Shown here: positions 22,647 through 63,265 of the stretch, in pieces | How the letters are laid out: each line of letters begins with the position of its first letter | How positions within the stretch are numbered: position 1 is the stretch's first letter | From: a virus | Lineage: Duplodnaviria; Heunggongvirae; Uroviricota; Caudoviricetes | Strand: one strand, 5' to 3' | Virus record (IMG/VR): IMGVR_UViG_2660238580_000002 | Length of the DNA: 64,000 nucleotides | The notes under the pieces: model-generated | Told to the model about the DNA's origin: nothing | The model's database searches: none | What the model saw: only the letters and a program-made list of their open reading frames with translations | Translations under genes and position numbers: made by a program

Positions 22647-22699
22647 TGTTCATTCCACGGACAAAACCAGAGAAAGGAAACGACAGAGGCCAAAAAGCC

Positions 22700-22860
22700 T
22701 GTTTTTAGCACCTGTCGTTTCCTTTCTTTTTAGGGGATGTTTTTAATAAAAACATTAAGTTACGGCGAAGAAGAACGGAAACGCCTTAAACAGGAAAATT
22801 TTCACAAATAGCGAAAACCCGCGCGCCTGACGCCCCGTAGCCTGTCAGATCGCCGGAAAG
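22700..22860 (-). other. island cos-like region (cosB-like, variant cosN 22824-22835, partial cosQ-side)
   Basis: Aligns base-by-base with prophage cos (39600-39790); 5 of 12 cosN positions differ (GGGCGTCAGGCG vs GGGCGGCGACCT). Confidence 0.7.
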
Positions 22861-22891
22861 GACCCGCCAGCCAGAGCGGGCCCTAATTTCA

Positions 22892-23275: not shown

Positions 23276-23286
23276 TGTATCCCCCT

Positions 23287-23628: not shown

Positions 23629-23637
23629 TGCTCCCCC

Positions 23638-24678
23638 TTAGCCAATGCGAACGGTAACAAAACGATTGATGCGGGCCGGTATTGGCTGTGGTGCTGAATG
23701 TGTCTGCACATATTCAATAGCCGGATCACCAGGTACAATATAGTTTTTCGGTGCAAGTTCGGCTTTAGTCAGCCCCATTCGGATTAGCTCCGGATCCTGA
23801 ATACCGCCATAGGCGACAATCCCCTGAAGAGCCGTATTGCCAAGCACCATCAAATCAGGATCAAGGAAATGTTTTTCTGTTCCGTCCTCGTCGGTATAAC
23901 GCCCGCTGTAAACAACAATCGCAACATCGCCCATATACCCTTTAAAACTCACCGAATCACCAAGGTCTTTAAGGGCCGTTTCCAGTTCGGAATTAGAACC
24001 ACGACGGGTATCCAAAGCCTCTTTTATCGCTCTGAATGAACGGTATTTCTTCCATACATTACCACCCATAATGATGATATTAGTGACGCCCTCACTAAAT
24101 TCTGCGTAGCTCTCAATATCATCATTTGGATCAAAAGTTTCTTTATCCTTACTTGACCACTCAGTACCGCCAGACTGAGTGATGATATTTTGTGGTTTTA
24201 TATTCCAGTCCAGCTCATAACGTTCAATACCATCGCCCTCAATGATATTTTTCCCCGTTGTGATTGCCTGAACAGCAAGCCATTCAATACGTGCACGAAT
24301 AGCTTTAGCTTGATTTACAATCGCCTGTTTAACTTTAATATTACGCGCCCCAAAAGCATTGTATTGCTCAGGTGATACACCAGCAGGGCGCACAGCTAAC
24401 TTATTTGGATCAATGCTGCTTTTCGGCTTCATATAGCCTGGACGAATTGTTTTTGATTCGTACCCTTCGTCACGTGAAACTTTACTACCCACCATAGGAG
24501 AACAAAACGCTGCAATTGGGATATTTGGATCGTCGATTGTATCAAGAATAATATCGCGCGATTCAAACATTACCGAGCGAGTAAAAAACAAACTGGTAAA
24601 CAACGCATTTAGTTGTTTTTGTACATCTACAGCATTAACCACCTGTACAAGCTGGGTAGGCGAATATAAATCAACCAT
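23638..24678 (-). CDS. major capsid protein E homolog (island-encoded, diverged)
   Basis: 347 aa from MVDLYSPTQL (AAAGAGGA RBS); C-terminus ITQSGGTEWS...DTRRGSNSELETA...GDVAIVVYSG aligns with lambda gpE. Confidence 0.8.
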   Translation of the reverse strand: MVDLYSPTQLVQVVNAVDVQKQLNALFTSLFFTRSVMFESRDIILDTIDDPNIPIAAFCSPMVGSKVSRDEGYESKTIRPGYMKPKSSIDPNKLAVRPAGVSPEQYNAFGARNIKVKQAIVNQAKAIRARIEWLAVQAITTGKNIIEGDGIERYELDWNIKPQNIITQSGGTEWSSKDKETFDPNDDIESYAEFSEGVTNIIIMGGNVWKKYRSFRAIKEALDTRRGSNSELETALKDLGDSVSFKGYMGDVAIVVYSGRYTDEDGTEKHFLDPDLMVLGNTALQGIVAYGGIQDPELIRMGLTKAELAPKNYIVPGDPAIEYVQTHSAPQPIPARINRFVTVRIG

Positions 24679-24963
24679 ACACATCCTCTTTGCATTCATT
24701 AAAAATAATTGTGGATATATGCTATCACCAATATTTGTCATGCGAATACATGCAACCGAGTGCAATGTTGTATAAAGTTTTGGGATGACAACTTCAGCGC
24801 GGATAATTAGTGTTAATATATTCACTCCCTTTGGTCGGGATTTATGTAGCATGCCGGAAAATTTATTTTTTCCGGCCTTTTTTATTGGCAATATTTAAAA
24901 CGGAATATCATCTCCCCATTGCTCATTATCTCCCACTGGTGGATGGCTTCCTTGCTGATCTGC

Positions 24964-25344
24964 CTATTGTTTTGCTCTGTTCAGTGCGTCAGTAGCCTGA
25001 CCCTGTTGACCTTTTTTGCCGCCCGGTCGCACCGTTCGCGCACTGATTACGCTGTCTGCGATAACCTGCCAGCCCTGCCGCGTTTCACCGTTCTGTCCAG
25101 TCCACTGGCTCACCTGCATGTTACCCGCCACGCTCAGGAGTTCGCCTTTGTGATGCTTTGCCAGCGCATCGGCTTGTCTGCCAAACGCCAGCACAGATAA
25201 CCACATCGTCGCCGTTCCGTCATCTGCCTGGCTGCATGGCAAAGATACCGCCATCCGTGCCAGTGTCATGGGTGTTCCCTTGCTGGTATGTTTTACCTGT
25301 GGGTCGTCCACCAGCCGCCCGTAAGCTGCTATTTGCGCCGTCAT
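24964..25344 (-). CDS. single-stranded DNA-binding protein (OB-fold, SSB-like)
   Basis: 126 aa with SSB-like pattern GRLVDDPQV...WLSVLAFGRQAD...KGELLSVAGNMQVSQW. Confidence 0.6.
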   Translation of the reverse strand: MTAQIAAYGRLVDDPQVKHTSKGTPMTLARMAVSLPCSQADDGTATMWLSVLAFGRQADALAKHHKGELLSVAGNMQVSQWTGQNGETRQGWQVIADSVISARTVRPGGKKGQQGQATDALNRAKQ

Positions 25345-25355
25345 GCTGCCTGCTC

Positions 25356-25598
25356 TCAGGACTTAATATTGATGGTTGTCACTTCCTCCGCTTCGGCAAT
25401 CTCCCGTTCGGTCAGCGTGGCAAAGTTTGCAGCCGCCGTTGTCATGAATGCGCTTATCAGTTCGGGATGTGCTTTCGCGTATCCTTCCCCGGCGTTGCGG
25501 TCTATTGCCTTAATCGCCACCCTTAGCCAGTGTTCAGCCATATCAAGGGCGCGGTAATGTGGCTTTATATGTTTGTTCAGTTTTCCTGATGTGTGCAT
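25356..25598 (-). CDS. hypothetical protein
   Basis: 80-aa ORF immediately downstream of iteron region. Confidence 0.4.
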   Translation of the reverse strand: MHTSGKLNKHIKPHYRALDMAEHWLRVAIKAIDRNAGEGYAKAHPELISAFMTTAAANFATLTEREIAEAEEVTTINIKS

Positions 25599-25643
25599 TT
25601 TTATTTTTACCCCCTCGTTTAAAAAGTTTTTTGTGCACCACCA

Positions 25644-25876
25644 CCTTGTCTACCTTGTCTACCTGATTAGTTATCAGGCCAGTAATGGCGCGGGTTTCAG
25701 AGAGGTAGACAGCCCCAAATAGCTGTCTACCTCATCTCTACCCGTCTCCTTACCTGTCTACAAAAATGGGTAGATAAGGTAGATAACAGGTAGACAGTGA
25801 AAAATAGTTATCTACCTGCATTAATACATTGAAATAAAAGTATTTTATTTCAGTCAGGTAGACAAGGTAGATAACC
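25644..25876. repeat. iteron cluster (GGTAGACA/GGTAGATA and complement TGTCTACC), putative island replication origin
   Basis: More than 10 copies of an 8-11 bp motif in both orientations, AT-rich, directly upstream of primase gene. Confidence 0.75.
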
Positions 25877-25887
25877 ATTGCCATTTT

Positions 25888-27639
25888 TTATAAAAACGCA
25901 TCGCAATCATCAGTAGTCGTTGCGTTGGTCTGAGTGACTCCCTTAACTTTTCGCGTAATATATTCATATCCGTAAACTTTCGCCGCTGACCTCATAGCCT
26001 TTCCGAACTCATTCACGCTCAAACATTTCCCCTTTCCTGTATATGCCATGAAGGCCATATAGACACGGTAAAGGCTGTTTCTGGTCGTGTACTTCACGGT
26101 GTCACCACCACCGCCCATCATTAGCCCACGAGCTTCCTCCAGAAACTCCAGCGCCGCGCAAAGCTCAACAACCGGATCCGTTTGCTGCTTTATTGCCAGA
26201 GCTTCATCACCGTCACGCTGTTCCAGTAATAAAGCCCGTGCCTTTTCAGGGTCAGCAAAATTAGCCAGCAAGCGGCGGATAATTACGGGGATTTCTGCCG
26301 CTATCTTTTCCGGTAATTCCTTGTCTTTTTCGTCCTCCCTTACAATGTTGTCGAACCGGAAAATCACCCGACGGCGTGACACACCTCCGGCCCGTTCGGT
26401 AAAGATCATCGGGTCGTTATTGGTTGCCAGTACCACCGCCCTTATTATCGTCGTGAATCGCTTCTCATATTTCGGGTTAATTTCAACGGGATCGCCTCCC
26501 GTGATTTTCTTGATGCCCGTGCCTTCCCCCGTATATTTCGGCTGATCGGCAAGGACGATAAGACGACTCCCGACAACCTGCGCGCGCCCTCCTGCATCAT
26601 CGAGTGATGTCATCTCTGCGCTTACGGTGTTCTGTTTGCCAGCAAGCAGGGTGGCAATATGAGTAAATGTGCTCTTTCCGCTTCCCCCGTCTCCGGTGGC
26701 CTCAATGAACATCTGCCAGTCGTAGCGGTTCGCCATAATCATGTATAACGCGGCACATATACGCATCATCTTGCGCGGGTCTTTTCCTGCAGCATGTTCA
26801 AGCCATTTATGGAAATTTGGCGCATTATCGCGGATGTTTTCCCCTGCTACTGGTGGCGTGTACTCAATACCATTGTGCGTGGTGCTCCAGTGCTCCGGCG
26901 AGTGCGGAGAAAATTCCCCCGTTTTCAGATTAAGCACACCATTAGTGAACGGTAGCAAATCACCGGACGGCTCCCCCATGGGGGCGGCAATAACTTTTAA
27001 CGCTTCCACGGCGTTATTGATTACGCGCTTGCTGAACGTGGCCCTGTGCTCTGAATAGATCGCCACCATTTCGCGGCTCAGCTCCATTGTGCTGACCGGA
27101 CACCATACCCCGCCGCGCCATACGTGGACGATTTCACTTTCTGCATGAACACAAACACCATCAAAGCGATCGGCAAGTAGTTGTGCCCGCTCACTGTCTG
27201 CCATCTGTGAAAGTTGCGCCTTTTGCTTCGTCGGAAGATTAAGCACCAGGCTTTCCCCACGCTCGCATTCCTCTTTGAGTCGCGGCAACTGGTCGGATAA
27301 ATCCACTGGGCTGGTGTCAGTAATCCCCGCGTATTCGTGTACGGTCTTCACTCCAGCCACAGCCAGTAACGTAACAATCTGCGTCATGCTGTGCTCTGTG
27401 ATATGTCCTGCGCGGTAAACACGCACACACTGACGATCTTCATCAATGATCCGGTAATCGGTGATGTTTTTCAGTTGCTCATCAGCCAACACGACAGGCG
27501 GCACATCGTCGGCGGCAATATGTTTACCCGCCCATTCCTGCCACTCTTTCGCATGGCTCCACGCATCACTACCTGCAAAGATGATTACCTCTGTCAGTCT
27601 GTCGCGTGGCTGTTTTTTTAAGTTCGGTGCCAGTTTCAT
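25888..27639 (-). CDS. P4-family primase/helicase (Pri-Rep-like replication protein)
   Basis: 583 aa; Walker A GDGGSGKST in C-terminal NTPase domain; adjacent to iterons. Confidence 0.75.
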   Translation of the reverse strand: MKLAPNLKKQPRDRLTEVIIFAGSDAWSHAKEWQEWAGKHIAADDVPPVVLADEQLKNITDYRIIDEDRQCVRVYRAGHITEHSMTQIVTLLAVAGVKTVHEYAGITDTSPVDLSDQLPRLKEECERGESLVLNLPTKQKAQLSQMADSERAQLLADRFDGVCVHAESEIVHVWRGGVWCPVSTMELSREMVAIYSEHRATFSKRVINNAVEALKVIAAPMGEPSGDLLPFTNGVLNLKTGEFSPHSPEHWSTTHNGIEYTPPVAGENIRDNAPNFHKWLEHAAGKDPRKMMRICAALYMIMANRYDWQMFIEATGDGGSGKSTFTHIATLLAGKQNTVSAEMTSLDDAGGRAQVVGSRLIVLADQPKYTGEGTGIKKITGGDPVEINPKYEKRFTTIIRAVVLATNNDPMIFTERAGGVSRRRVIFRFDNIVREDEKDKELPEKIAAEIPVIIRRLLANFADPEKARALLLEQRDGDEALAIKQQTDPVVELCAALEFLEEARGLMMGGGGDTVKYTTRNSLYRVYMAFMAYTGKGKCLSVNEFGKAMRSAAKVYGYEYITRKVKGVTQTNATTTDDCDAFL

Positions 27640-27935
27640 TTTTTGCCCCTGAATGCGTTAATCATGCTTTTCATTTTCTGGATGTTTCCCCGCGCTTTTT
27701 CCCTGCTGATGGGCTTACTGCGGGGTGCGGCATATACCAGGGAAAAATCACGCCGGAACTGATAAACAGGCATCACGCAGTCATAGCTATACCCCTCACG
27801 ACGGTAAGTGATGCGCCGTTCTGCCACGCCTTTAATCGTTACCGTGCCGCCGTATTTATCGCGGTAAATATCGCCGTTCATAAATTCAGGCCGAGCGGGG
27901 CCGCTGGCAATAAAGCCAGAATTTTTCATTTCCAT
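27636..27935 (-). CDS. hypothetical protein
   Basis: 99-aa ORF, stop overlaps primase start. Confidence 0.4.
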   Translation of the reverse strand: MEMKNSGFIASGPARPEFMNGDIYRDKYGGTVTIKGVAERRITYRREGYSYDCVMPVYQFRRDFSLVYAAPRSKPISREKARGNIQKMKSMINAFRGKK

Positions 27936-27952
27936 ATTATTTATTCCTCGAC

Positions 27953-28174
27953 TTAACTCGACTTATTTGATAGCAGGGCACTATTTATTGCGTCATTGAG
28001 TTTTTCTGCTGCTTCATCAATAAGTGACAACAGGCCATAAGCAATATTTGCATCTTCATTGTCATTTATGCAATCAAGCCACATATTTAATATTGCTTTT
28101 GCTGAATTATTTAAAGTTAATGAACTTTCTGCACATGCTAACAATTTAAAAAAGACTTCCCGTTCTGTATTCAT
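27953..28174 (-). CDS. hypothetical protein
   Basis: 73-aa ORF in island early region. Confidence 0.35.
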   Translation of the reverse strand: MNTEREVFFKLLACAESSLTLNNSAKAILNMWLDCINDNEDANIAYGLLSLIDEAAEKLNDAINSALLSNKSS

Positions 28175-28366
28175 TTAATCCCCCACCAGCTTACTTTCTT
28201 CCTCAATCAAAAAACTAGCGACACTTCCCGAAAGACGCGCCAGTAGGCTCGCCAGTGCGGATATATCAGCATCTGTAATTTTGTTCGGGTATACCTCAAG
28301 AAGGCGGCAAATAATTTCTGTCTGGTGCGCACGTTCAGCGGCTTCGTGTAATGTGATTTCCTGCAT
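28175..28366 (-). CDS. hypothetical protein
   Basis: 63-aa ORF in island early region. Confidence 0.35.
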   Translation of the reverse strand: MQEITLHEAAERAHQTEIICRLLEVYPNKITDADISALASLLARLSGSVASFLIEEESKLVGD

Positions 28367-28600
28367 TAATGCACCTCTTTTAATTCATACACTGCTGAAA
28401 TAATGACTTGTGATAAGCCATATTCTGATGATTCGCTTCTCACCGCAGCAATAGCCGTCTGAACATTAACAGCCTTCACGTTCTGAGCGATACCAATTGT
28501 GTGGCCTAGTGGGTTAACCGCACGAGCAAATACACGGAAGGTTTTAAGCACGGCATACTGAACCGCCCCGGGTTTCCTGGAGAGTGTTTTATCTGTGAAC

Positions 28601-29491
28601 TCAGGCTGCCAGATCATCGTTTCCGATGGAAGCATAATAAGCTTTTTCTGCTTCTGCCGGAGGAGTATGGCCCAGCCTTTCCAGCAATCGTCGATTGTTA
28701 TACCAGTCCACCCACGTGAGTGTGGCCAGTTCCACTTCTGCACGGTTTTTCCAGCTCTTACGGTGTATTACCTCCGCTTTGTAAAGACCATTGATGCTCT
28801 CCGCCATCGCGTTGTCATACGAGTCGCCTGTACTTCCTGTTGATGCCAGTAATCCGGCTTCCTTAAGCCGCTGTGTGTAGGCCAGCGATACATACTGAGA
28901 ACCTTTATCACTGTGATGGACCGTGCCGGACGGTCGACGGGCCCATAACGCCTGCTCCAGTGCATCCAGCACGAATGTCGTTTCCATGGACGATGAGACC
29001 CGCCACCCCACGATGTATCCGGCAAACACATCAATGATGAACGCCACATAGACGAAGCCCCGCCATGTGCTGACGTAAGTAAAATCAGCCACCCACAGCT
29101 GGTCAGGTCGTTCTGCCACGAACTGACGGTTTACGCGGTCGCCTGCGGCAACGGCTTTCCGGCTGATGGTCGTACGGACCTTTTTACCCCGGAGAACACC
29201 GGCAAGTCCCATAACCGCCATGAGACGTGCCACAGTGCATCTGGCCACTCTGATACCTTCCCGTAACAACTGACGCCAGACTTTACGCACACCGTATACC
29301 TTGTGATTTTCATCGTATACGCGCTGTATCTCTTTCTTCAGCCAGTCATCGCGCTGCGCACGGGCACTGCGTTTATCCGGATGATGTCGCTGTTGCTGAC
29401 AGTGGTAATACGTTGACGGGGCAATATGCAGTTCGCTGCATAGCGGTCCGACCCCGTACTGCTCACGCAGCTTATCCAGCAGTGGCATCAT
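28601..29491 (-). CDS. IS629 transposase OrfB (DDE integrase core)
   Basis: 296 aa, identical to copy at 61767-62657. Confidence 0.9.
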
Positions 29492-29814
29492 TTTTTCCAG
29501 AGGCGGTCGAACTCCGCCTTCGCAAAATAAGCGGAAGCCTGGCGAAGGATATCGTTACTGCGGCGCAGTTCACGATTTTCACGTTCCAGCTCTTTCAGAC
29601 GCTGACGTTCAGCGGTGGTGAGCCCTCCATCACCGCCCCCGGTATCCCGCTCATGCTGGCGAACCCAGACACGCAGAGTCTCCGGCGTACAGCCAATCTT
29701 TGGAGCAATGGAACAAATTGTCGCCCATTGTGAGTCATATTCGCTCTGACTTTCCAGAACCATACGGACTGCCCGTTGACGGACTTCGGGGGAAAAACGA
29801 GTATTTTTAGTCAT
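29488..29814 (-). CDS. IS629 transposase OrfA (HTH)
   Basis: 108 aa [30 protein letters not shown]. Confidence 0.9.
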
Positions 29815-29868
29815 CCTGTTTACCTCTTTCTCAGGAAGTTTAGTCTCCAGGATTCCCGGGGCGGTTCA

Positions 29869-30060
29869 TACCTCCTGACGAATACGGGCGGCAAATATCA
29901 TCACGCAGCCAGTTGGGGATTGTTGGCGGGCTTCCTGTTCGCTGGCGGCCTCGATGTGTATTACGCGTGGTTGTGCGGTGCTCAGGGCGATAAAACGCCA
30001 GATGTATTTATTCAGGTTGTGCGGGTCCCGCCCTTGCGGGTGTGTGGTATGATTTCTCAT
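29869..30060 (-). CDS. Icd-like cell division inhibitor family protein, 3' end truncated by IS629
   Basis: YIWRFIALSTAQPRVIHIEAASEQEARQQS...IFAARI resembles Icd-like small proteins; reading past the IS predicts loss of only 3 codons. Confidence 0.45.
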
Positions 30061-30198
30061 AGCTATCTCGATACTGTTGCTATCGTTGGTGGTTAGAAGC
30101 CCGTTGGTGTTCCTAGCGCCTTCGGGCTTTGCTTTTTTAAGTGCCTCCGTGTTAAGGTGGTCACCTAACAGTAAAAAGGCTAATTCAATAGGTGGTCA

Positions 30199-30391
30199 CT
30201 TGTCAACAATCAAACGCGATAAAAGTCCTAAGGGTGATGGGCAATCTCCACAATTCAGAATGCGAATTTCTCCAGAGCTAAAAGAGCAATTCGACAAAGA
30301 AGCGCAGAGCGACGGCATAAGCCTAGCCAACTGGCTTAAAGAATTAGGGCGCAAAGAGCTGCTACGGCGCGGTATTGAACCAAAAGGATAA
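30199..30391 (+). CDS. ribbon-helix-helix (Arc/CopG-like) DNA-binding protein
   Basis: C-terminal ISPELKEQFDKEAQSDGISLANWLKELGRKELL RHH pattern; start uncertain (TTG at 30199 with AGGTGG SD, or ATG at 30260). Confidence 0.5.
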
Positions 30392-30418
30392 GAGTAATTG
30401 AAGTCAAGGAGCTAACAC

Positions 30419-30775
30419 ATGAAATACGAATTCTTCGCAACAAGTAGCAGTAGTTTGGATGTATACATAGTCACTGTATCAAACGATTCTAGCTCGCTAA
30501 TCATGACTTGCAATTGTCCAGCAGGAAGTAAAGGTATTCTATGTAGACACCGTAAAGCTTTAATTACCGGAAAAATCCGTGGTATATTCACTCCCCCAAG
30601 AAGGAATAATCCCGAAAAGTTACAAGAAGCTATAAATTTAATAACCACATATGGCATAGATAAAACATTAAAGTTGTACACTGATGAGTTAGAACGAGCA
30701 GAACAGACTTGGATAAGTGTTCGCGATAATTTGAGAGCAATGATAAACGCTCTTGTTGAACCACCTAAATATTGA
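30419..30775 (+). CDS. small SWIM-type zinc-finger protein
   Basis: 118 aa with CNCPAGSKGILCRH (CxC...CxH); AAGGAG RBS upstream. Confidence 0.5.
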   Translation: MKYEFFATSSSSLDVYIVTVSNDSSSLIMTCNCPAGSKGILCRHRKALITGKIRGIFTPPRRNNPEKLQEAINLITTYGIDKTLKLYTDELERAEQTWISVRDNLRAMINALVEPPKY

Positions 30776-30906
30776 ACTGTTCACATTGCCTATCAGTCGA
30801 CAACCTCGTATTCTGATTAAGGCTAACTATATACTCACATTGGCGACCAATTCTGGTCGCCTTTATCCACCATTTTTATAACATCATAGATTAAAAGTGT
30901 TAATCC

Positions 30907-31737
30907 TTACCCCCTGAATGGAATTGATGAGGATTTAATTTCCACTGAACTAAATCCTTTTGAATCCAAGAACATTTTTATACCAGCCTCAATGAAATCA
31001 TAATCGTTTGTCGGGCCAATAGTAATACTTTTAATTGGTAACTTCCTATGATCTTTATTACCAATGATGATATAAGGGATGACACCATTATTATTTATTC
31101 TGAATTGCACATCTGGTATTAGTATGCGCGGAGTAAATACCAATCTAAATTCATTTTCTTCGATAAAACTAGGATGTTTAAAAAATGGGATGTATTTAGA
31201 TATAAATTGATACGTAGAGGCCATTGTTACAAAATGATCATTCTTTTCTTTAATATTAATACCATTACAAGAAAAAAACGCCCCCAACTCCTTACTCATC
31301 TTAGTAACATCGTTATTATTTGAATATATAACATCATGTGCAACACAATTTAAATAAATATTTTGAGAAAAGCTCACAAGTTCATCCGCATCAAACTCAA
31401 TGCAAACACCCTGTTTATTTCCGTAACCTCTCCACTGACTTAACTTATCGTTTTCCTTACAAAAAGAGATGCTATAAACATGTTTATCAATCCCTTTTTC
31501 TTTTTGTAACCTCCCTTTCTCATACATGTCAAGAGACTTGAGCAAAATAGTTTTCTTATCTTTTGGAATGATATTGTCATCAACTATTTTAATTGTATTT
31601 CGAAAGCATTCACATCCATGGTTAGACTCCTCTTTATCATTTAAGAAATATATGTTTGTAGCCCATAAAGAATTAGAGTCTAATATACCTTTCAAACCAA
31701 AAAGATCTGTATAATGAAATATAGCCACAATGCCCAC
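30907..31737 (-). CDS. DUF2971-like protein
   Basis: 276 aa; N-terminal IFHYTDLFGLKGILDSNSLWATNIYFLNDKEE resembles DUF2971 signature. Confidence 0.5.
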   Translation of the reverse strand: MGIVAIFHYTDLFGLKGILDSNSLWATNIYFLNDKEESNHGCECFRNTIKIVDDNIIPKDKKTILLKSLDMYEKGRLQKEKGIDKHVYSISFCKENDKLSQWRGYGNKQGVCIEFDADELVSFSQNIYLNCVAHDVIYSNNNDVTKMSKELGAFFSCNGINIKEKNDHFVTMASTYQFISKYIPFFKHPSFIEENEFRLVFTPRILIPDVQFRINNNGVIPYIIIGNKDHRKLPIKSITIGPTNDYDFIEAGIKMFLDSKGFSSVEIKSSSIPFRG

Positions 31738-31744
31738 CTAATAG

Positions 31745-31975
31745 TTAAGTTGTTTCCCACTCACCTCGAATCCATGCCTGCACTTCTGAAAGACGATATG
31801 CAACAGCAGTGGAACCAATCTTGATCCGCTTAGGAAATTTTCCTTCCTTCTCCAGCTTCCAGCGTGTGCTGTTCGCAAGAGTGGTTAGCTCCCGACATTC
31901 TTTCTCACGGATCATTCGGTCAATGTTAGGAATGTACTCCAGACCCTTTTTATCAACAATTGCCATTTTTTTCAT
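31745..31975 (-). CDS. alpA: AlpA-family transcriptional regulator
   Basis: 76 aa; TTLANSTRWKLEKEGKFPKRIKIGSTAVAYRLSEVQAWI AlpA-type HTH; immediately downstream of int. Confidence 0.75.
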   Translation of the reverse strand: MKKMAIVDKKGLEYIPNIDRMIREKECRELTTLANSTRWKLEKEGKFPKRIKIGSTAVAYRLSEVQAWIRGEWETT

Positions 31976-31976
31976 G

Positions 31977-33212
31977 TTAACCAGCCTTTTGTTTGAGGAT
32001 TGTCACTTTTGAATCAGCACCTGCGATGCTATTGAGATATGTAGTCCAGAGTTCCAGAGCATCCAGTTTTTTAGCCATAAACTTACTCCGGTTGTAAACA
32101 CCTGCCACGCCAGGTAGCGCATGGCCTAACAGTTGTTCTACTACATAAAATTCAACACCGAGATCACTTAGATGAGTAGATAGCGTTCTTCTAAGGTCGT
32201 GTAGTGACCATTGTTTTTCATGGCCCAAACGTTTACCGATTTTCCCCCCAATCTTGCTTACGCTTTCTCTAATTCGCAGACTTCCCAGCACATAACCAGT
32301 ATGTTTTGTCTCTTCGTGAACATCCGTTACCCACTGTCGTAGAATTTCAGGTACTGGTCTGACGATTTCAACACCGGTTTTTGAGTGTTCTTTTGGTACA
32401 GTCCAAACCCAACTTTCTAGATCCCATTCGCTCCATTCTGATAATCGGGCTTCACTCATTCGACATCCAAATACTGTACAAAGCACAAACATTTTTCGCG
32501 TGTATTCAGACATTAGTTTTAAATCAGGCTCGACAAAAATTGCCTTCCAGAGCTGGCCCAGTTCGGCTTCATCCAGAACCCGATCCCGCTTACCTGCAAT
32601 CTGCCCCACATCACTCATGCGCAAATCCTTTAAAGCATCACACGTCGCGTACTGGCGTACCCGACAAAAACGAAGAGCTAATTTAGTGTCAGAAAAAACA
32701 TACGCCGCCATAACTGGTGCATTACGTTTAATTCGGTCAAAACAGTCCAGCCATTCATATAGGTGAGTGTCATTTACGGGCAAATGACCGATATAGGGAA
32801 AGATATGCTTTCGAAATCTGCCAAGCGTTACAGCATGAGTTTTACGACGCACCTTACAGTAATTTTCATACCAGTAATTTAGTGCATCCTCCACTGTGAC
32901 CGGCTTTAAGCGTTCTTCAGCCTGAATCTTAATCTGGATACGCGGATCACGTTTGTCAGCCAACCAACCACGGCACTCGTCGCGCTTTTCTCTTGCCTGT
33001 TTGAGTGACATATCAGGATATTTACCCAACGTTAGCCAGACCGGAGCAGCCCGGCCACCTGCTAACCTGTAGAAGAAAACAAAGCTCACAGCCCCCTTAG
33101 TACTCACACGAATAGAAAGCCCCTTTCCATCAGCAATGGTGATCTGCTTTTCTCTGGGTTTCCCCAGATATCCTTTAAGCGCTTTGTCGCTCAGTTTGTT
33201 CTCGCCAGCCAT
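31977..33212 (-). CDS. int: P4-type tyrosine integrase
   Basis: Start MAGENKL; DUF4102-like arm domain; catalytic residues R (CRMSEARL), HDLRRT, Y (VAGVYNRS); adjacent to junction repeat. Confidence 0.9.
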   Translation of the reverse strand: MAGENKLSDKALKGYLGKPREKQITIADGKGLSIRVSTKGAVSFVFFYRLAGGRAAPVWLTLGKYPDMSLKQAREKRDECRGWLADKRDPRIQIKIQAEERLKPVTVEDALNYWYENYCKVRRKTHAVTLGRFRKHIFPYIGHLPVNDTHLYEWLDCFDRIKRNAPVMAAYVFSDTKLALRFCRVRQYATCDALKDLRMSDVGQIAGKRDRVLDEAELGQLWKAIFVEPDLKLMSEYTRKMFVLCTVFGCRMSEARLSEWSEWDLESWVWTVPKEHSKTGVEIVRPVPEILRQWVTDVHEETKHTGYVLGSLRIRESVSKIGGKIGKRLGHEKQWSLHDLRRTLSTHLSDLGVEFYVVEQLLGHALPGVAGVYNRSKFMAKKLDALELWTTYLNSIAGADSKVTILKQKAG

Positions 33213-33344
33213 TTTTAGCCCCAAAAAGCAATACAAGCTGCAATACAGAGATGATTGCAACACACAGATAACGAGGAAAATCCAGTGAAAGCGCCAGATA
33301 ATCTTATTCTTTATTATCAAAGAATTAAGTGTAAAAACCAGCAA

Positions 33345-33620
33345 CTACACGAAAGCCTCAGAAAGCCATGCTAAGTGCTTCGGCTTGACATATCCCGGCG
33401 TAAATTCAGAGGTGGAGCCGCCACGGGAACGGATAACCTCACCGGAAACAATCGGCGAAACGTACAGCGCCATGTTTACCAGTCCCGGAATTTGTGAGAG
33501 ATAGACTTTCTCCGTGGTGAAGGGATAGCTCTCACGGAAAAAGAGACACAGAAACAGCGGATCAAACTTAAATTTCTGCTCATTTGCCGCCAGCAGTTGG
33601 GCGGTTGTGTACATCGACAT
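33345..33620 (-). pseudogene. E: major capsid protein E, 5' fragment (codons 1-~83) fused to 9 island-derived codons
   Basis: MSMYTTAQLLAANEQKFKFDPLFL...EFTPGYVKPKH then LAWLSEAFV-stop from island sequence. Confidence 0.92.
33376..33385. repeat. 10-bp direct repeat TGCTTCGGCT (island junction, putative att core)
   Basis: Identical to 20939-20948; overlaps E codons Lys-Pro-Lys-His of the 5' fragment. Confidence 0.8.
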
Positions 33621-39045: not shown

Positions 39046-39565
39046 TCAGCAACCCCGGTATCAGTTCATCCAGCGCGGCTGCTTTGTTCATGGCTTTGAT
39101 GATATCCCGTTTCAGGAAATCAACATGTCGGTTTTCCAGTTCCGGAAAACGCCGCTGCACCGACAGGGGGATCCCGTCGAGAATACTGGCAATTTCACCT
39201 GCGATCCGCGACAGCACGAAAGTACAGAATGCGGTTTCCACCACTTCAGCGGAGTCTCTGGCATTTTTCAGCTCCTGTGCGTCGGCCTGCGCACGCGTAA
39301 GTCGATGGCGTTCGTACTCAATAGTCCCTGGCTGGAGATCTGTCTCGCTGGCCTGCCGCAGTTCTTCAACTTCCCGGCGCAGCTTTTCGTTCTCAATTTC
39401 AGCATCCCTTTCGGCATACCATCTTATAACGGCGGCAGAGTCATAAAGCACCTCATTACCCTTGCCACCGCCTCGCAGAACGGGCATTCCCTGTTCCTGC
39501 CAGTTCTGAATGGTACGGATACTCGCACCGAAAATGTCAGCCAGCTGCTTTTTGTTGACTTCCAT
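39020..39565 (-). CDS. Nu1: terminase small subunit Nu1
   Basis: 181 aa MEVNKKQLADIFGASIRTIQNWQEQGMPVLRGGGKGNEV; 546 nt equals lambda Nu1. Confidence 0.93.
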   Translation of the reverse strand: MEVNKKQLADIFGASIRTIQNWQEQGMPVLRGGGKGNEVLYDSAAVIRWYAERDAEIENEKLRREVEELRQASETDLQPGTIEYERHRLTRAQADAQELKNARDSAEVVETAFCTFVLSRIAGEIASILDGIPLSVQRRFPELENRHVDFLKRDIIKAMNKAAALDELIPGLLSEYIEQSG

Positions 39566-39599
39566 TGTTCATTCCACGGCCAAAAACAGAGAAAGGAAA

Positions 39600-39790
39600 C
39601 GACAGAGGCCCAAAAGCTCGTTTTCAGCACCTGTCGTTTCCTTTCTTTTCAGGGGGTATTTTAAATAAAAACATTAAGTTACGACGAAGAAGAACGGAAA
39701 TGCCTTAAACCGGAAAATTTTCATAAATAGCGAAAACCCGCGAGGTCGCCGCCCCGTAACCTGTCGGATCACCGGAAAGGACCCGTAAAG
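39600..39790 (-). other. prophage cos site (cosB, cosN at 39743-39754, cosQ)
   Basis: Contains AGGTCGCCGCCC (reverse complement of lambda cohesive end GGGCGGCGACCT) followed by CGTAACCTGTCGGATCACCGGAAAGGACCCGT. Confidence 0.85.
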
Positions 39791-51685: not shown

Positions 51686-53238
51686 GAAAAATCCCCCAGA
51701 GAATTGTCTGGGGACATTTTAGAATGGTTCAAAGGGGACATTACAGCTTGGTGTTAACAATAGCCTGCTTCTCCGTGCCTTTCGGCACGTAAGAGGCTAA
51801 CCTACATGTGTCTAGCATGAAATTGGCCTCAGATTAATGTTAAGCGTCTTGCAGGACGCGTAATGTTAACTGGGGCTTTTCTCTATCTGCCGTTGGTGTC
51901 CATGCCCGAGGCAGATAGCCTCAAGCACCCGCAGTCATTCTACTTAACTAAGATTTCCCCGCAAACCGTTTTTGTCCAGCACAGTAAATATCCAACTAAA
52001 CCAATGGAGTTCGCTGTATTTACCGCCAGTATTCAATGCACATGACCGCCATGAACACCCCTAAAAAAAGGGCATTTATATATCCAAATATTAATATCAA
52101 AACATCAACTTTTTCCATATACCTTGCTGTGAAGATGATGGGCATACATGATGCGAACAACCAGAACGCAACAAACAAAAACTGCAATGCGTTTTTCATT
52201 ATTCCTCCTACAATCAATGTGCAATTACATTTAAACACACCTCAATTTGGCCGGACATATAAATATCTAAACCAGAAAAAATCACTTACATAGCGTTACA
52301 AACTCTTTAGTCTAAAGGTTCATCGTAAAACATTCCCCATACTTATCAGTCCGTTCCGCGCCAGGTAGCTCATTGCCTTATCTGGCAACCTGTAATCAGG
52401 TTTCCGCTTTTTCAGTTGGCTGGTCGTTTAACCGACATAGTTAATCCATTAATCTAGTTGCCGGATGTTGGTGGATTTTCGCGTTTTAGTTGTTCATAAA
52501 AGTGCACAGCTTTAACCAGTTCTTCTGATGTAACTGGGACTGGTGAGGCAGTGAATAAGGCCTGAATTTGATAGTTCGGCCTGTCGTTACAATCCTCTTT
52601 TTTCGGTACATATTTCCAGTCACCAGACCACTACTTCCCCTGAAAGTCCGTAACGCCTTTTTTCACGTAGCGATATCGCCATGCCACTGGTTTTGCTTGC
52701 CCCGCCGTTTCATGCCCTTCCTGATAATTAATCTCGCTCATTCATCGCCCCACTCATCACAATATGCTTCGACCGGAGTTTTTCCCGCTTCATAGTCATC
52801 ACGCTAGGATTCGACATCAGCAGCACTTCCACCGCGTAACTCACCATAGTCCATTAATAGTTCATCCCGCTCTTCAAAACTGATGTTATATTTAGCTGAA
52901 CAAAAATCAGCCACTTTGTTCTTCCTCATCGTCTTTTATTTCGTGGTATGAGTAATTGCAGTAGTTAAAGAAAATTTCTTATGCTCCGTCATGAATTTCC
53001 GTAAGCGTAAACTGACCGCCGTATGTAGCCATCAGACGAGAATTGGTAACTTAGACGCCCATCTGATATAGACGGACATCTAAGTATGGAATTACAGGAC
53101 TGGCGAAAAGAACCTCGTAAAAACTATTCGAATGAATTCAAACTTCGTAGACTGGCCCCCTGAATCTCCAGACAACCAATATCACTTAAATAAGTGATAG
53201 TCTTAATACTAGTTTTTAGACTAGTCATTGGAGAGCAG

Positions 53239-53604
53239 ATGATTGATGTCTTAGGACCGGAGAAACGCAGACGGCGTACTACACAGGAAAAGATCGCTAT
53301 TGTTCAGCAGAGTTTTGAACCGGGAATGACGGTCTCCCTTGTTGCCCGGCAACACGGTGTGGCAGCCAGCCAGTTATTTCTCTGGCGCAAGCAATACCAG
53401 GAGGGAAGTCTTACTGCTGTGGCCGCAGGAGAGCAGGTCGTTCCTGCCTCTGAACTTGCTGCTGCCATGAAGCAGATTAAAGAACTCCAGCGCCTGCTCG
53501 GCAAAAAAACGATGGAAAATGAACTCCTTAAAGAAGCCGTTGAATACGGGCGTGCAAAAAAGTGGATAGCGCACGCGCCCTTATTGCCCGGGGATGGGGA
53601 GTAA
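53239..53604 (+). CDS. insC: IS2 InsC (OrfA)
   Basis: [30 protein letters not shown]. Confidence 0.9.
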
Positions 53605-54467
53605 GCTTAGTCAGCCGTTGTCTCCGGGTGTCGCGTGCGCAGTTGCACGTAATTCTCAGACGAACCGATGACTGGAAAGATGGTCGCCGCAGCCGTCACT
53701 CAGATGATACGGATGTGCTTCTCCGTATACACCATGTTATCGGAGAGCTGCCCACGTATGGTTATCGTCGGGTATGGGCGCTGCTTCGCAGACAGGCCGA
53801 ACTTGATGGTATGCCTGCGATCAATGCCAAACGTGTTTACCGGATCATGCGACAGAATGCGCTGTTGCTTGAGCGAAAAACCGCTGTACCGCCATCGAAA
53901 CGGGCACATACTGGCAAAGTGGCCGTGAAAGAAAGCAATCAACGATGGTGCTCTGACGGGTTCGAGTTCCGCTGTGATAACGGAGAAAAACTGCGAGTCA
54001 CGTTCGCGCTGGACTGCTGTGACCGTGAGGCACTGCACTGGGCAGTCACTACGGGCGGCTTCGACAGTGAAACAGTACAGGACGTCATGCTGGGAGCGGT
54101 GGAACGCCGCTTCGGCAACGAGCTTCCGGCGTCTCCAGTAGAGTGGCTGACGGATAATGGTTCATGCTACCGGGCTAATGAAACACGGCAGTTTGCCCGG
54201 ATGTTGGGGCTTGAACCGAAGAACACGGCGGTGCGGAGTCCGGAGAGTAACGGCATAGCAGAGAGCTTCGTGAAAACGATAAAGCGTGACTACATCAGTA
54301 TCATGCCTAAACCAGACGGGTTAACGGCAGCAAAGAACCTTGCAGAGGCGTTCGAGCATTATAACGAATGGCATCCGCATAGTGCACTGGGTTATCGCTC
54401 GCCACGGGAATATCTGCGGCAGCAGGCCAGTAATGGGTTAAGTGATAACAGGTGTCTGGAAATATAG
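53562..54467 (+). CDS. insD: IS2 InsD transposase (OrfB)
   Basis: 301 aa with DDE integrase core; overlaps insC. Confidence 0.9.
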
Positions 54468-54843
54468 GGGCAAATCCACTTCGTATGGTGGAACTGGCAT
54501 CACAACCTGGAGCTTGTGTTGCACAGATTGCACGTGAAAATGGCGTCAATGATAATGTTATTTTCAAATGGCTCAGGCTCTGGCAGAACGAAGGGCGTGT
54601 TTCGCGGCGTCTTCCGGTAACGACCTCTTCTGACACTGGCGTTGAATTATTACCTGTAGAAATAACGCCGGATGAGCAGAAAGAACCTGTGGCGGCCATT
54701 GCGCCGTCTTTATCCACTTCCACTCAGACCAGAGTCAGTGCCAGTTCCTGCAAGGTGGAATTCCGTCACGGTAACATGACGCTGGAAAATCCATCGCCAG
54801 AGCTGCTCACAGTGTTGATCCGTGAACTGACCGGGAGGGGAAG

Positions 54844-55194
54844 ATGATCTCACTCCCATCAGGTACCCGTATCTGGCTCGTTGCCGGCGTTACCGATATG
54901 CGTAAATCCTTCAACGGACTGGGAGAACAGGTACAACATGTGCTGAATGATAATCCCTTCTCCGGTCACCTGTTTATCTTCCGTGGCCGACGGGGTGACA
55001 CCGTCAAAATTCTTTGGGCTGATGCTGATGGTCTGTGCCTGTTCACCAAACGCCTGGAGGAAGGCCAGTTTATCTGGCCTGCGGTACGTGACGGCAAGGT
55101 ATCCATTACCCGCTCGCAACTGGCAATGCTCCTCGATAAGCTGGACTGGCGTCAGCCAAAAACATCCAGCCGTAACTCACTGACAATGTTGTAA
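54844..55194 (+). CDS. IS66-family orf2 (TnpB)
   Basis: 116 aa MISLPSGTRIWLVAGVTDMRKSFNGL. Confidence 0.85.
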   Translation: MISLPSGTRIWLVAGVTDMRKSFNGLGEQVQHVLNDNPFSGHLFIFRGRRGDTVKILWADADGLCLFTKRLEEGQFIWPAVRDGKVSITRSQLAMLLDKLDWRQPKTSSRNSLTML

Positions 55195-55224
55195 AAAACT
55201 CCTGACCGCATTATAAAAACGGTC

Positions 55225-56838
55225 ATGAGTCAGAAATACCTCATTCGCATCGCAGAGCTGGAAAGGTTGCTCTCTGAGCAGGCTGAAGCCCTCCGTCAGA
55301 AAGACCAGCAACTGAGTCTGGTTGAAGAGACGGAAGCCTTCCTGCGCTCTGCACTGACACGTGTCGAAGAAAAGATCGAAGAAGATGAACGGGAAATAGA
55401 ACATCTGCGGGCTCAGATAGAAAAACTGCGCCGGATGCTGTTCGGTACCCGTTCTGAAAAACTGCGTCGTGAAGTTGAACTGGCTGAGGCTCTGCTGAAA
55501 CAACGTGAACAGGACAGCGATCGTTACAGTGGGCGGGAAGACGATCCTCAGGTTCCCCGCCAGTTGCGACAGTCGCGCCATCGTCGTCCGTTACCGGCAC
55601 ACCTTCCCCGTGAAATACACCGCCTGGAGCCAGAAGAAAGCTGTTGCCCGGAGTGTGGCGGTGAGCTGGATTATCTGGGGGAAGTCAGCGCTGAACAGCT
55701 GGAACTGGTGAGCAGTGCCCTGAAAGTGATCCGCACAGAACGGGTAAAAAAAGCCTGTACAAAATGTGACTGTATTGTTGAAGCACCGGCGCCGTCCCGC
55801 CCGGTAGAGCGTGGTATCGCGGGCCCCGGATTACTTGCCCGCGTGTTAACGGGAAAATACTGCGAACATCTGCCACTGTATCGTCAGAGTGAAATCTTTG
55901 CCCGCCAGGGTGTCGAACTGAGCCGGGCCTTACTCTCCAACTGGGTTGACGCGTGCTGCCAGTTAATGACACCGGTGAATGATGCCCTGTACCGTTATGT
56001 AATGAACACCCGCAAGGTTCACACTGATGACACACCGGTAAAGGTACTGGCACCGGGTCAGAAAAAGGCGAAAACAGGGCGTATCTGGACGTATGTCCGG
56101 GATGATCGCAATGTGGGTTCGTCATCTCCTCCAGCGGTCTGGTTCGCGTACTCGCCGAACCGGCAGGGGAAACACCCGGAGCAACACCTCCGCCCCTTCC
56201 GGGGTATCCTGCAGGCGGATGCGTTCACAGGTTACGACAGGTTGTTCAGTGCAGAACGTGAAGGTGGTGCACTGACAGAAGTTGCGTGCTGGGCCCATGC
56301 CCGGCGAAAAATCCACGATGTATACATCAGCAGCAAAAGTGCGACGGCAGAAGAAGCCCTGAAGCGAATCAGTGAACTGTACGCCATCGAGGATGAAATA
56401 CGGGGATTACCGGAGTCAGAGCGTCTTGCCGTCAGGCAGCAGCGAAGCAAAGTGTTACTGACGTCGCTGCATGAATGGATGGTGGAGAAGAATGGTACGC
56501 TGTCGAAAAAATCCAGACTGGGCGAAGCGTTCAGCTATGTACTGAATCAGTGGGATGCCCTCTGTTATTACAGTGATGACGGTCTGGCGGAGGCGGATAA
56601 TAATGCTGCGGAAAGAGCGCTTCGTGCAGTCTGTCTCGGAAAGAAAAACTTTATGTTCTTTGGCAGCGATCACGGCGGCGAGCGTGGAGCACTGTTGTAC
56701 GGGCTGATCGGCACCTGCCGTCTGAACGGTATCGATCCGGAAGCGTATCTGCGCCATATCCTGAGCGTACTGCCGGAATGGCCTTCCAACCGAGTTGATG
56801 AACTCCTGCCATGGAACGTAGTACTCACCAATAAATAA
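55225..56838 (+). CDS. IS66-family transposase (orf3, TnpC)
   Basis: 537 aa with N-terminal coiled coil, Cys motif CPECGG...CTKCDC, DDE domain. Confidence 0.88.
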   Translation: MSQKYLIRIAELERLLSEQAEALRQKDQQLSLVEETEAFLRSALTRVEEKIEEDEREIEHLRAQIEKLRRMLFGTRSEKLRREVELAEALLKQREQDSDRYSGREDDPQVPRQLRQSRHRRPLPAHLPREIHRLEPEESCCPECGGELDYLGEVSAEQLELVSSALKVIRTERVKKACTKCDCIVEAPAPSRPVERGIAGPGLLARVLTGKYCEHLPLYRQSEIFARQGVELSRALLSNWVDACCQLMTPVNDALYRYVMNTRKVHTDDTPVKVLAPGQKKAKTGRIWTYVRDDRNVGSSSPPAVWFAYSPNRQGKHPEQHLRPFRGILQADAFTGYDRLFSAEREGGALTEVACWAHARRKIHDVYISSKSATAEEALKRISELYAIEDEIRGLPESERLAVRQQRSKVLLTSLHEWMVEKNGTLSKKSRLGEAFSYVLNQWDALCYYSDDGLAEADNNAAERALRAVCLGKKNFMFFGSDHGGERGALLYGLIGTCRLNGIDPEAYLRHILSVLPEWPSNRVDELLPWNVVLTNK

Positions 56839-57227
56839 GCGTCAATACGGTGCTCCGTTGACGCTTACGAATTTCCTCAGGTGTTGCGTCATCGTCCACT
56901 TCGAATACATCCTCAAAATCTCCACCAGCTATTCCCGTTTCAATAATAATTTTGAACTTTCGCATTTCACTACCGCCCTTTCGGGCGGCCTCCTGATGTT
57001 CTGAGGGTGCAGAAATCCATCCGGTTAAGGATTAAATTTTATTTACAGAACTGAATTTAATTATTCAGATATACGTATCTGTAGCCTTACGAATCTACTC
57101 ACTGGATGCCTCTTTCATAAAAATAATCCAGTGGGTTTTATCGTTTTTTCCCTGTTCGTTGACAGATAACAGGTTTTCTGTCTGTCAGTGCCAGAATCTG
57201 GCTTACCGGTATTTGCGTTTCATTCCA

Positions 57228-57584
57228 TTAAAAAATCAGAACGCCGTGCGGCCTCAACACCCGAAAGGCTTCTTTAAATCTCTGTCGCGAATCATCACGC
57301 CAGGCATCTTTATTCAGCCGTCCATATTTCTTTCCCATCCAGGCGTTATCACCAACACTCTCAAGATGCGGAGGGTCTAATACAACCATCGAAAAAGATG
57401 CGTCTGCAAATGATAATGCACGAAAATCTGCGATAATGTCAGGGCTGATAATCAAGCGTCTCCCATTGCGTAATGTGTATCCTTCTTTTCTGATATCGCT
57501 GAATATCGCCCGTTCGTCAGACTTATCGAACCAGAACATGCGGCTGCCACAGCACATATCAAGAATGGTTGCCGGTGCACTCAC
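57228..57584 (-). CDS. putative SAM-dependent DNA methyltransferase fragment
   Basis: 118 aa with ILDMCCGS (motif I-like) and VLDPPH (DPPY-like); too short for a complete MTase. Confidence 0.35.
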   Translation of the reverse strand: MSAPATILDMCCGSRMFWFDKSDERAIFSDIRKEGYTLRNGRRLIISPDIIADFRALSFADASFSMVVLDPPHLESVGDNAWMGKKYGRLNKDAWRDDSRQRFKEAFRVLRPHGVLIF

Positions 57585-61672: not shown

Positions 61673-61766
61673 ATTCAGCATTTGTGCTTGTTCTGACAGT
61701 TTTTCTTGTTTCCGGAGAGCCAGTTGAACCGCCCCGGGTTTCCTGGAGAGTGTTTTATCTGTGAAC

Positions 61767-62657
61767 TCAGGCTGCCAGATCATCGTTTCCGATGGAAGCA
61801 TAATAAGCTTTTTCTGCTTCTGCCGGAGGAGTATGGCCCAGCCTTTCCAGCAATCGTCGATTGTTATACCAGTCCACCCACGTGAGTGTGGCCAGTTCCA
61901 CTTCTGCACGGTTTTTCCAGCTCTTACGGTGTATTACCTCCGCTTTGTAAAGACCATTGATGCTCTCCGCCATCGCGTTGTCATACGAGTCGCCTGTACT
62001 TCCTGTTGATGCCAGTAATCCGGCTTCCTTAAGCCGCTGTGTGTAGGCCAGCGATACATACTGAGAACCTTTATCACTGTGATGGACCGTGCCGGACGGT
62101 CGACGGGCCCATAACGCCTGCTCCAGTGCATCCAGCACGAATGTCGTTTCCATGGACGATGAGACCCGCCACCCCACGATGTATCCGGCAAACACATCAA
62201 TGATGAACGCCACATAGACGAAGCCCCGCCATGTGCTGACGTAAGTAAAATCAGCCACCCACAGCTGGTCAGGTCGTTCTGCCACGAACTGACGGTTTAC
62301 GCGGTCGCCTGCGGCAACGGCTTTCCGGCTGATGGTCGTACGGACCTTTTTACCCCGGAGAACACCGGCAAGTCCCATAACCGCCATGAGACGTGCCACA
62401 GTGCATCTGGCCACTCTGATACCTTCCCGTAACAACTGACGCCAGACTTTACGCACACCGTATACCTTGTGATTTTCATCGTATACGCGCTGTATCTCTT
62501 TCTTCAGCCAGTCATCGCGCTGCGCACGGGCACTGCGTTTATCCGGATGATGTCGCTGTTGCTGACAGTGGTAATACGTTGACGGGGCAATATGCAGTTC
62601 GCTGCATAGCGGTCCGACCCCGTACTGCTCACGCAGCTTATCCAGCAGTGGCATCAT
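61767..62657 (-). CDS. IS629 transposase OrfB
   Basis: 296 aa identical to copy 1. Confidence 0.9.
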
Positions 62658-62980
62658 TTTTTCCAGAGGCGGTCGAACTCCGCCTTCGCAAAATAAGCGG
62701 AAGCCTGGCGAAGGATATCGTTACTGCGGCGCAGTTCACGATTTTCACGTTCCAGCTCTTTCAGACGCTGACGTTCAGCGGTGGTGAGCCCTCCATCACC
62801 GCCCCCGGTATCCCGCTCATGCTGGCGAACCCAGACACGCAGAGTCTCCGGCGTACAGCCAATCTTTGGAGCAATGGAACAAATTGTCGCCCATTGTGAG
62901 TCATATTCGCTCTGACTTTCCAGAACCATACGGACTGCCCGTTGACGGACTTCGGGGGAAAAACGAGTATTTTTAGTCAT
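62654..62980 (-). CDS. IS629 transposase OrfA
   Basis: 108 aa identical to copy 1. Confidence 0.9.
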
Positions 62981-63265
62981 CCTGTTTACCTCTTTCTCAG
63001 GAAGTTTAGTCTCCAGGATTCCCGGGGCGGTTCAAGTTGATATTGCAGTCAGTGTTCACAGGACAATGCAGGAGTGTATGACTGCAGCAACCGAACAGAA
63101 AATTCCCGGTAACTGTTACCCGGTCGATAAAGTTATTCACCAGGATAATATCGAAATCCCGGCAGGTCTTTAAAACAGTTCCGTAATAAATATCCGGTTT
63201 CATTCTTATATGCCAGCAATGGCAGGGATTTGTTCATCCTTAAATCTGTCATGAGGTTAAAACAA

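Follow-up and report, generated by a model that had tools for sequence, protein, structure and literature searches.

The question raised by this locus is how two insertion sequences (IS) came to lie one inside the other within a prophage, in which order they arrived, and what the arrival of the second did to the first. The locus occupies positions 52993 to 56876 of a 64,000-nucleotide stretch of viral DNA (IMG/VR record IMGVR_UViG_2660238580_000002, Caudoviricetes; the whole stretch is referred to here as the window), where a variant of IS2, a member of the IS3 family, interrupts the tnpA gene of ISEc23, a member of the IS66 family. The arrangement is very probably the product of two independent, sequential transpositions into a region of a cryptic, lambdoid Escherichia coli prophage, of the Qin type, that is non-essential and in decay. 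The nesting, with the duplications of both elements intact, had been recognized in a first-pass annotation of the window and is borne out by boundaries read from the sequence; the start given there, 52993, is exact, and the end, 56878, lies 2 nt too far, as the right duplication finishes at 56876. The limits of the two elements, their duplications, the order of the two events and the intactness of the open reading frames (ORFs) were read directly from the window and from E. coli chromosomes in which the same site is either empty or holds ISEc23 without IS2.

Boundaries and identity of the two elements

ISEc23 spans 53001 to 56868 (3868 bp including IS2; read from the sequence, with a scripted check of the coordinates) and measures 2532 bp after in silico removal of IS2 and one copy of the CTTCG repeat that flanks it. 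As first annotated, the element has imperfect terminal inverted repeats (53001-53024 and 56845-56868, which have 20 of 24 positions in common and GTAAGCGT at the start of each) and an 8-bp direct repeat, GAATTTCC, at 52993-53000 and 56869-56876. Imperfect terminal inverted repeats opening with GTAA and an 8-bp target-site duplication are typical of the IS66 family. Under the ISfinder rule, elements are the same IS at 95 % or more nucleotide identity to the reference, and the proxy used for ISEc23 was the E. coli 042 copy, in which the Prokaryotic Genome Annotation Pipeline (PGAP) names the transposase ‘IS66-like element ISEc23 family’. The restored element differs from this copy by 3 mismatches and no gaps over 2532 nt (99.88 % identity), and this comparison supports the identification of the outer element as ISEc23 of the IS66 family.

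The restored ISEc23 has the gene order tnpA-tnpB-tnpC. In profile searches against NCBIfam and Pfam, the accessory protein TnpA, which is of the HTH_Tnp_1 type and identical to WP_000422741.1, matched NF047595 (83 bits, cut-off 74) and PF01527, and the IS66 Orf2-like TnpB, identical to WP_000624722.1, matched NF033819 and PF05717. The DDE_Tnp_IS66 transposase TnpC matched NF033517 (450 bits), PF03050, PF13005, PF13007 and PF13817, its Pfam domains including zf-IS66, LZ_Tnp_IS66 and the IS66 C-terminal element, and it differs from WP_000080195.1 of the E. coli 042 copy at two residues (A47V and I194V). All five proteins of ISEc23 and IS2 exceed the NCBIfam and Pfam cut-offs. An imperfect hairpin (53049-53085, with 16-nt arms that are 81 % complementary and a 5-nt loop) lies immediately upstream of the tnpA start at 53086, and may be a transcriptional or translational control element of ISEc23.

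The inner element agrees with its original description as an IS2 of 1331 bp with a 5-bp duplication, and runs from 53148 to 54478, with the termini TAGACTGGCCCC... and ...GGGGCAAATCCA and with CTTCG at 53143-53147 and 54479-54483. For both elements the duplications abut the inverted-repeat ends exactly. Aligned with IS2A of E. coli K-12 MG1655, the inner element is equal in length, has no gaps and is 95.7 % identical (57 mismatches in 1331 nt); its left end is identical to that of IS2A and its right end has a single difference in the last 45 nt. InsC is identical to the K-12 protein and matched NF006928, ‘IS2 repressor TnpA’, over residues 1-121 of 121 (276 bits, cut-off 229), and InsD, which differs from its K-12 counterpart at 11 of 301 residues, matched NF006918, ‘IS2 transposase TnpB’, over residues 1-301 of 301 (706 bits, cut-off 597), together with the Pfam domains rve and rve_3. 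An A7 run at 53503-53509 lies in the overlap of orfA and orfB, where a -1 programmed frameshift is expected. The element would best be called a variant or isoform of IS2, its identity to canonical IS2 being just above the 95 % threshold. Full-length (1331 bp) copies that are 100 % identical to it are found in several other E. coli, including strain G5, and are labelled simply ‘IS3 family transposase’ by PGAP; on the strength of these copies the element is taken to be a circulating variant and not a decayed one. Since this IS2 retains its two ends, its two ORFs and the A7 run, it is probably still active in transposition. The features of the nested locus are listed below, with the strand and the basis of each assignment.

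52907-52992, minus strand: 3' part of the target DUF7167 pseudogene, with a pre-existing stop 4 codons past the insertion point
52993-53000, no strand: left 8-bp target-site duplication of ISEc23, GAATTTCC, present as a single copy in empty-site genomes
53001-53024, plus strand: left terminal inverted repeat of ISEc23 (GTAAGCGTAAACTGACCGCCGTAT), 20/24 match to the right repeat
53086-53147, plus strand: 5' fragment of ISEc23 tnpA (codons 1-20 and 2 nt of codon 21); restored TnpA equals WP_000422741.1
53143-53147, no strand: left 5-bp target-site duplication of IS2, CTTCG, present as a single copy in uninterrupted ISEc23
53148-54478, plus strand: IS2 variant, 1331 bp, in the orientation of the ISEc23 genes, with imperfect repeat arms at 53157-53189 and 54438-54470 (79 % complementary)
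53239-53604, plus strand: IS2 orfA (insC), 121 amino acids, helix-turn-helix (HTH) protein (NF006928)
53562-54467, plus strand: IS2 orfB (insD), 301 amino acids, DDE (rve) catalytic part (NF006918, rve, rve_3)
54479-54483, no strand: right 5-bp target-site duplication of IS2, CTTCG, from sequence reading
54484-54847, plus strand: 3' fragment of ISEc23 tnpA (last base of codon 21 to the stop), HTH_Tnp_1 domain split
54844-55194, plus strand: ISEc23 tnpB (IS66 Orf2-like), 116 amino acids, intact, start overlapping the tnpA stop (ATGA); NF033819, PF05717
55225-56838, plus strand: ISEc23 tnpC, DDE transposase, 537 amino acids, intact; NF033517, PF03050, PF13005, PF13007, PF13817
56845-56868, minus strand: right terminal inverted repeat of ISEc23, by inverted-repeat pairing with the left end
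56869-56876, no strand: right 8-bp target-site duplication of ISEc23, GAATTTCC, from sequence reading
56877-56965, minus strand: 5' part of the target DUF7167 pseudogene (PGAP pseudogene with internal stop; PF23768)

Three states of the site and the order of insertion

The sequences that preceded each insertion were rebuilt in silico, as the first-pass annotation had proposed, and compared with other genomes. The empty site (the window up to 53000 joined to the window from 56877, a 2000-bp query) found unbroken matches at 100 % identity in many E. coli chromosomes, among them those of ATCC 8739, W, 042, IAI39 and CE10, and at least 80 % of this query was covered in 371 genomes; GAATTTCC is present once in the empty-site genomes. 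The intermediate state was found with 120 nt of sequence spanning the Qin/ISEc23 junction on the left, a query that was matched at 100 % and in one piece in 8 complete E. coli genomes (CFSAN061762, G5, PF9285, 1008S13, 20A24, LR-21-1, EC102 and LST200A), so that strain G5 carries both the Qin ISEc23 and a 100 % identical copy of the IS2 variant. Two of the eight, CFSAN061762 and PF9285, were inspected, and in both tnpA, tnpB and tnpC are annotated as uninterrupted. Removal of IS2 and one CTTCG from the window gives a sequence 100 % identical to these two genomes across both junctions (left part 247 nt, right part 2485 nt), with the same 8-bp duplication as in the window. Agreement of this extent, here and at the empty site, goes far beyond what chance would produce.

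The contiguous IS2/ISEc23 junction was not found in 5,426 E. coli genomes, the PLSDB plasmids, the GTDB species representatives and the JGI metagenomes, and none of the 5,426 E. coli genomes reached 80 % coverage of positions 52500-57400. Matches to the junction reported at 100 % were rejected as the same junction, each consisting of two pieces with 190-530 bp between them. Also rejected, as instances of the same composite, were the best ‘full-length’ matches in E. coli to 52500-57400, which hold IS2 and ISEc23 side by side or differently nested; among these, 042 and pCFS3292-2 have other nestings (described below), and in E. coli strain 405 the two are adjacent, not nested.

The occurrence of both the empty and the uninterrupted-ISEc23 states at the same site argues for the order ISEc23, then IS2. 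The parsimonious reading has ISEc23, which is present there in a small set of strains, arriving first, and IS2, which is found there in this strain only, arriving second. In the first step ISEc23 (2532 bp) entered an already inactivated DUF7167 gene and duplicated the 8 bp GAATTTCC; in the second, which came later and is confined to this strain's lineage, the 1331-bp IS2 variant, of the copy-out/paste-in IS3 family, entered codon 21 of tnpA and duplicated CTTCG.

The same end state would result if IS2 had entered an ISEc23 elsewhere and the 3.9-kb composite had then reached the Qin site by unit transposition, homologous recombination or gene conversion. Both ends of ISEc23 are intact, which makes mobilisation in trans mechanistically possible, and an IS-in-IS arrangement of these two elements is known elsewhere, in E. 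coli 042, where an IS2 variant carries ISEc23 in its right end. Against such a preformed composite stand the eight genomes with ISEc23 at the same site, of which the two aligned share the duplication and 100 % of the sequence with tnpA uninterrupted, as well as the lack of a second IS2/ISEc23 junction in any collection searched and of a second copy of either ISEc23 or IS2 in the 64-kb window, and it is judged very improbable. Arrival of IS2 in situ is the simplest reading, because plain ISEc23 exists at the same site in other genomes.

IS elements are also classic sources of misassembly, and the arrangement was seen in this window alone, as would be the case if an assembler had misplaced IS2 into ISEc23 while resolving repeats. 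A misjoin would not, however, yield a perfect 5-bp duplication at the exact termini of IS2, nor would it allow the base-for-base restoration of a 141-codon tnpA, and clean duplications also flank further IS insertions of the window that are specific to the strain. An artefact of assembly is regarded as extremely unlikely, and two successive transpositions remain the preferred explanation.

The site of the first insertion is annotated by PGAP in empty-site genomes as a 183-bp pseudogene, ‘DUF7167 family protein’, with an internal stop. Its pre-insertion translation is MRKFKIIIETGIAGGDFEDVFEVDDDATPEEIHDGA*EIFFNY..., and when read through the stop it matched PF23768 (DUF7167) over nearly the whole profile (50 bits, cut-off 24.4); the frame is broken by an internal TAA in the empty-site genomes. 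Judged by its sequence, the target gene was already dead before ISEc23 entered it. According to the first-pass annotation, a small minus-strand ORF with its start at 56965 appears to be truncated by the IS66-family insertion. This did not hold up: because the DUF7167 gene carried its internal stop beforehand, nothing functional was truncated, and the ORF, which has 36 codons in empty-site genomes, became longer, as ISEc23 entered 4 codons ahead of the stop and HDGA* was replaced by 14 IS-derived codons. The resulting chimeric ORF (56825-56965, minus strand) encodes 46 amino acids, with 32 codons from the DUF7167 pseudogene and 14 from the right end of ISEc23. PGAP calls this chimera ‘DUF7167 family protein’ (WP_180356208.1) in the intermediate-state genomes CFSAN061762 and PF9285 (7049-7189 of the extracted segments), and that annotation is likely to be an artefact.

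The assignment to a Qin-type prophage follows from synteny, the window holding dicA, dicB, dicC, ydfA-D, relBE, hokD, flxA and lambdoid late genes, and being collinear, at 99.95-100 % identity, with both ATCC 8739 and the annotated CFSAN061762 region. The gene neighbouring the DUF7167 pseudogene is a pseudogene too, with a frameshift. In ATCC 8739 the site is flanked by an ISNCY remnant on one side and by genes for a methyltransferase, DUF977, an O-like protein, ydaT, dicC and dicA on the other. Six of the best empty-site matches hold another IS within the same 2 kb (ISVsa5, an IS3-family element, or a different, truncated IS66-family element). The simplest reading is that this Qin interval is a neutral stretch, tolerant of insertions, that has been hit by IS elements repeatedly.

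E. coli AHB21 (NZ_OZ547226.1, positions 1463-2818 of the extracted segment) carries a truncated IS66-family element with TnpA WP_000839179.1 and a partial tnpC. It was rejected as an instance of the same insertion, having a different TnpA and a truncated tnpC and lying just outside the DUF7167 pseudogene.

Further IS insertions are present elsewhere in the window. Two 100 % identical 1310-bp IS3-family copies (28559-29868 and 61725-63034), with ends TGAACCGCCCCGGG... and 3-bp duplications TAC and AGT, are putatively of the IS629 type by their end sequence; the first lies inside a genetic island described below, and the second lies in the Qin ydfD/dicB region and is absent from CFSAN061762. A 768-bp IS1-type insertion (1331-2098, ends GGTAATGACTCC... 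and ...GGCAGCATCACC, 8-bp duplication GCGTTTTC) adjoins a ydfJ remnant at the edge of the prophage and is also absent from CFSAN061762. With the IS2 and the two 1310-bp copies counted, at least three IS insertions of the window are missing in CFSAN061762 and one more lies within the island, a sign of recent IS activity. The window differs from CFSAN061762 also by a 39-bp in-frame insertion (8004-8042), with the short repeat CCGCCATC at its bounds, in the gene for a prophage outer-membrane protein of the Ail/Lom family.

The island, 12,427 bp in length (20949-33375), is flanked by the 10-bp direct repeat TGCTTCGGCT, is inserted in the prophage gene for a lambda-E-type major capsid protein, and carries genes for an integrase, AlpA, a D5-type primase, a single-stranded DNA-binding protein, E-type capsid and D-type decoration proteins of its own, a Nu1-like small terminase and two DUF2971 proteins. 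The island agrees with the helper-embedded phage-inducible chromosomal islands (HE-PICI) of the published ‘11capE’ type, which has a 10-bp identity block in the capsid gene E (PMC10111431), and similar islands are present in other E. coli. A 531-bp direct repeat (22336-22866 and 39255-39785, 93.6 % identity) relates the Nu1-like small-terminase region of the island to the nohA/Nu1 region of the prophage, which fits a satellite that exploits the packaging signals of its helper.

Interruption of tnpA and mobility of the ISEc23 copy

The restored tnpA is a continuous frame of 141 codons from the ATG at 53086. IS2 sits after base 2 of codon 21, in accord with the early estimate that orf1 is split after about 20 codons, and the break at residue 21 lies inside the HTH_Tnp_1 domain, which covers residues 11-62 of the restored protein. 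The 5' fragment now reads as an ORF of 25 amino acids that ends within the left end of IS2, and tnpB and tnpC have been displaced 1.3 kb further from the promoter region at the left end of ISEc23. Han et al. (2001) reportedly showed that IS679 requires each of tnpA, tnpB and tnpC for transposition. With tnpA cut inside the HTH domain and with tnpB and tnpC farther from the promoter region, this ISEc23 copy would most likely be unable to transpose autonomously. Because tnpB, tnpC and both ends are intact, it could be mobilised in trans by TnpA from another copy of ISEc23. Translational coupling of IS66-family ORFs has been reported (PMC3469429, summarising Han et al. 2001).

Several points weigh against this view of the copy as defective in itself and mobilisable by others. 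The requirement for TnpA was described for IS679 and not for ISEc23. Dependence on TnpA is also not universal in the IS66 family, as one subgroup (ISBst12-like) has tnpC alone. The 3' part of tnpA remains an open frame, whether begun at a GTG in the right end of IS2 (54452) or at Met22 (54485). Its stop overlaps the start of tnpB, and some expression of tnpB and tnpC by read-through from IS2 would be possible. As for copies acting in trans, the view of this genome spans 64 kb, and the junction query was placed once in 4 of the 8 intermediate-state chromosomes, including the closely matching CFSAN061762, which suggests that in those four the Qin copy is the sole chromosomal ISEc23 left end.

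The open frame that runs from GTG 54452 into the overlap with tnpB, and the shared orientation of IS2 with tnpA, tnpB and tnpC, could also be taken to mean that the nesting is functional and that IS2, instead of simply inactivating the element, promotes or controls expression of the ISEc23 genes downstream of it, one conceivable route being a TnpA that is truncated, or fused to IS2, starts at 54452 or 54485 and is coupled to tnpB. A scan of 52900-57100 for promoter and terminator consensus sequences gave no excess over shuffled expectation and no promoter-like site at the IS2/tnpA junction. Such a role is further opposed by the broken HTH domain and by the finding of the arrangement in a single strain, which gives no sign of selection, and it deserves hardly any credence. 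The wider proposal, in which the ISEc23::IS2 composite is alive, read-through from IS2 expresses a truncated or fused TnpA, and the 3.9-kb unit regulates other ISEc23 copies or moves with IS2 as cargo, would be a most improbable one as well. The preferred interpretation of the nest is still that of two independent insertions, the later of which split a gene of the earlier.

Comparison with known systems

The nested insertion carries little weight beyond annotation and strain typing. For typing it serves as a clean marker of the lineage, this strain being the only one in which it was found, and alongside the empty and intermediate forms of the site it documents three steps in the history of the locus, on a stretch of Qin that tolerates repeated IS insertions. 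For annotation it flags a problem, namely that a 46-amino-acid chimera running into the end of ISEc23 is labelled as a DUF7167 family protein by PGAP.

The outer element resembles ISEc23 of E. coli in its restored length of 2532 bp, its tnpA-tnpB-tnpC order, its GTAAGCG... ends and its 8-bp duplication, and differs in that its tnpA is interrupted by IS2 and its TnpC is two residues removed from that of E. coli 042. The inner element shares with IS2A of K-12 MG1655 the length of 1331 bp, a gapless alignment, the overlap of orfA and orfB with its A7 run and the 5-bp duplication, whereas it differs at 57 nt, and its InsD at 11 of 301 residues. All eight complete E. coli genomes that carry ISEc23 in Qin share with the window the left junction to the Qin flank; in CFSAN061762 and PF9285 tnpA is whole, while in the window it holds IS2.

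The closest parallel to the nesting itself is in E. coli 042 (NC_017626.1, positions 1501-5372 of the extracted segment), where the same two elements are nested and each has its own duplication, read directly as GGAAATAT for ISEc23 and ATTTA for IS2. There, however, ISEc23 is the guest, 13 bp from the right terminus of the IS2 variant, whose transposase is annotated by PGAP as ‘incomplete, missing C-terminus’, whereas in the window IS2 is the guest, in tnpA. Identical match lengths indicate that CV839-06, ETEC1731 and ETEC1747 probably share the arrangement of E. coli 042. On the plasmid pCFS3292-2, IS2 lies inside the tnpC of an ISEc23, and not inside tnpA as in the window. The specific insertion described here is unrecorded in the collections searched and is a strain marker; both elements, their duplications and the nesting of one IS within another are already textbook knowledge, and the locus represents no new mechanism or type of element but a further combination of known ones.

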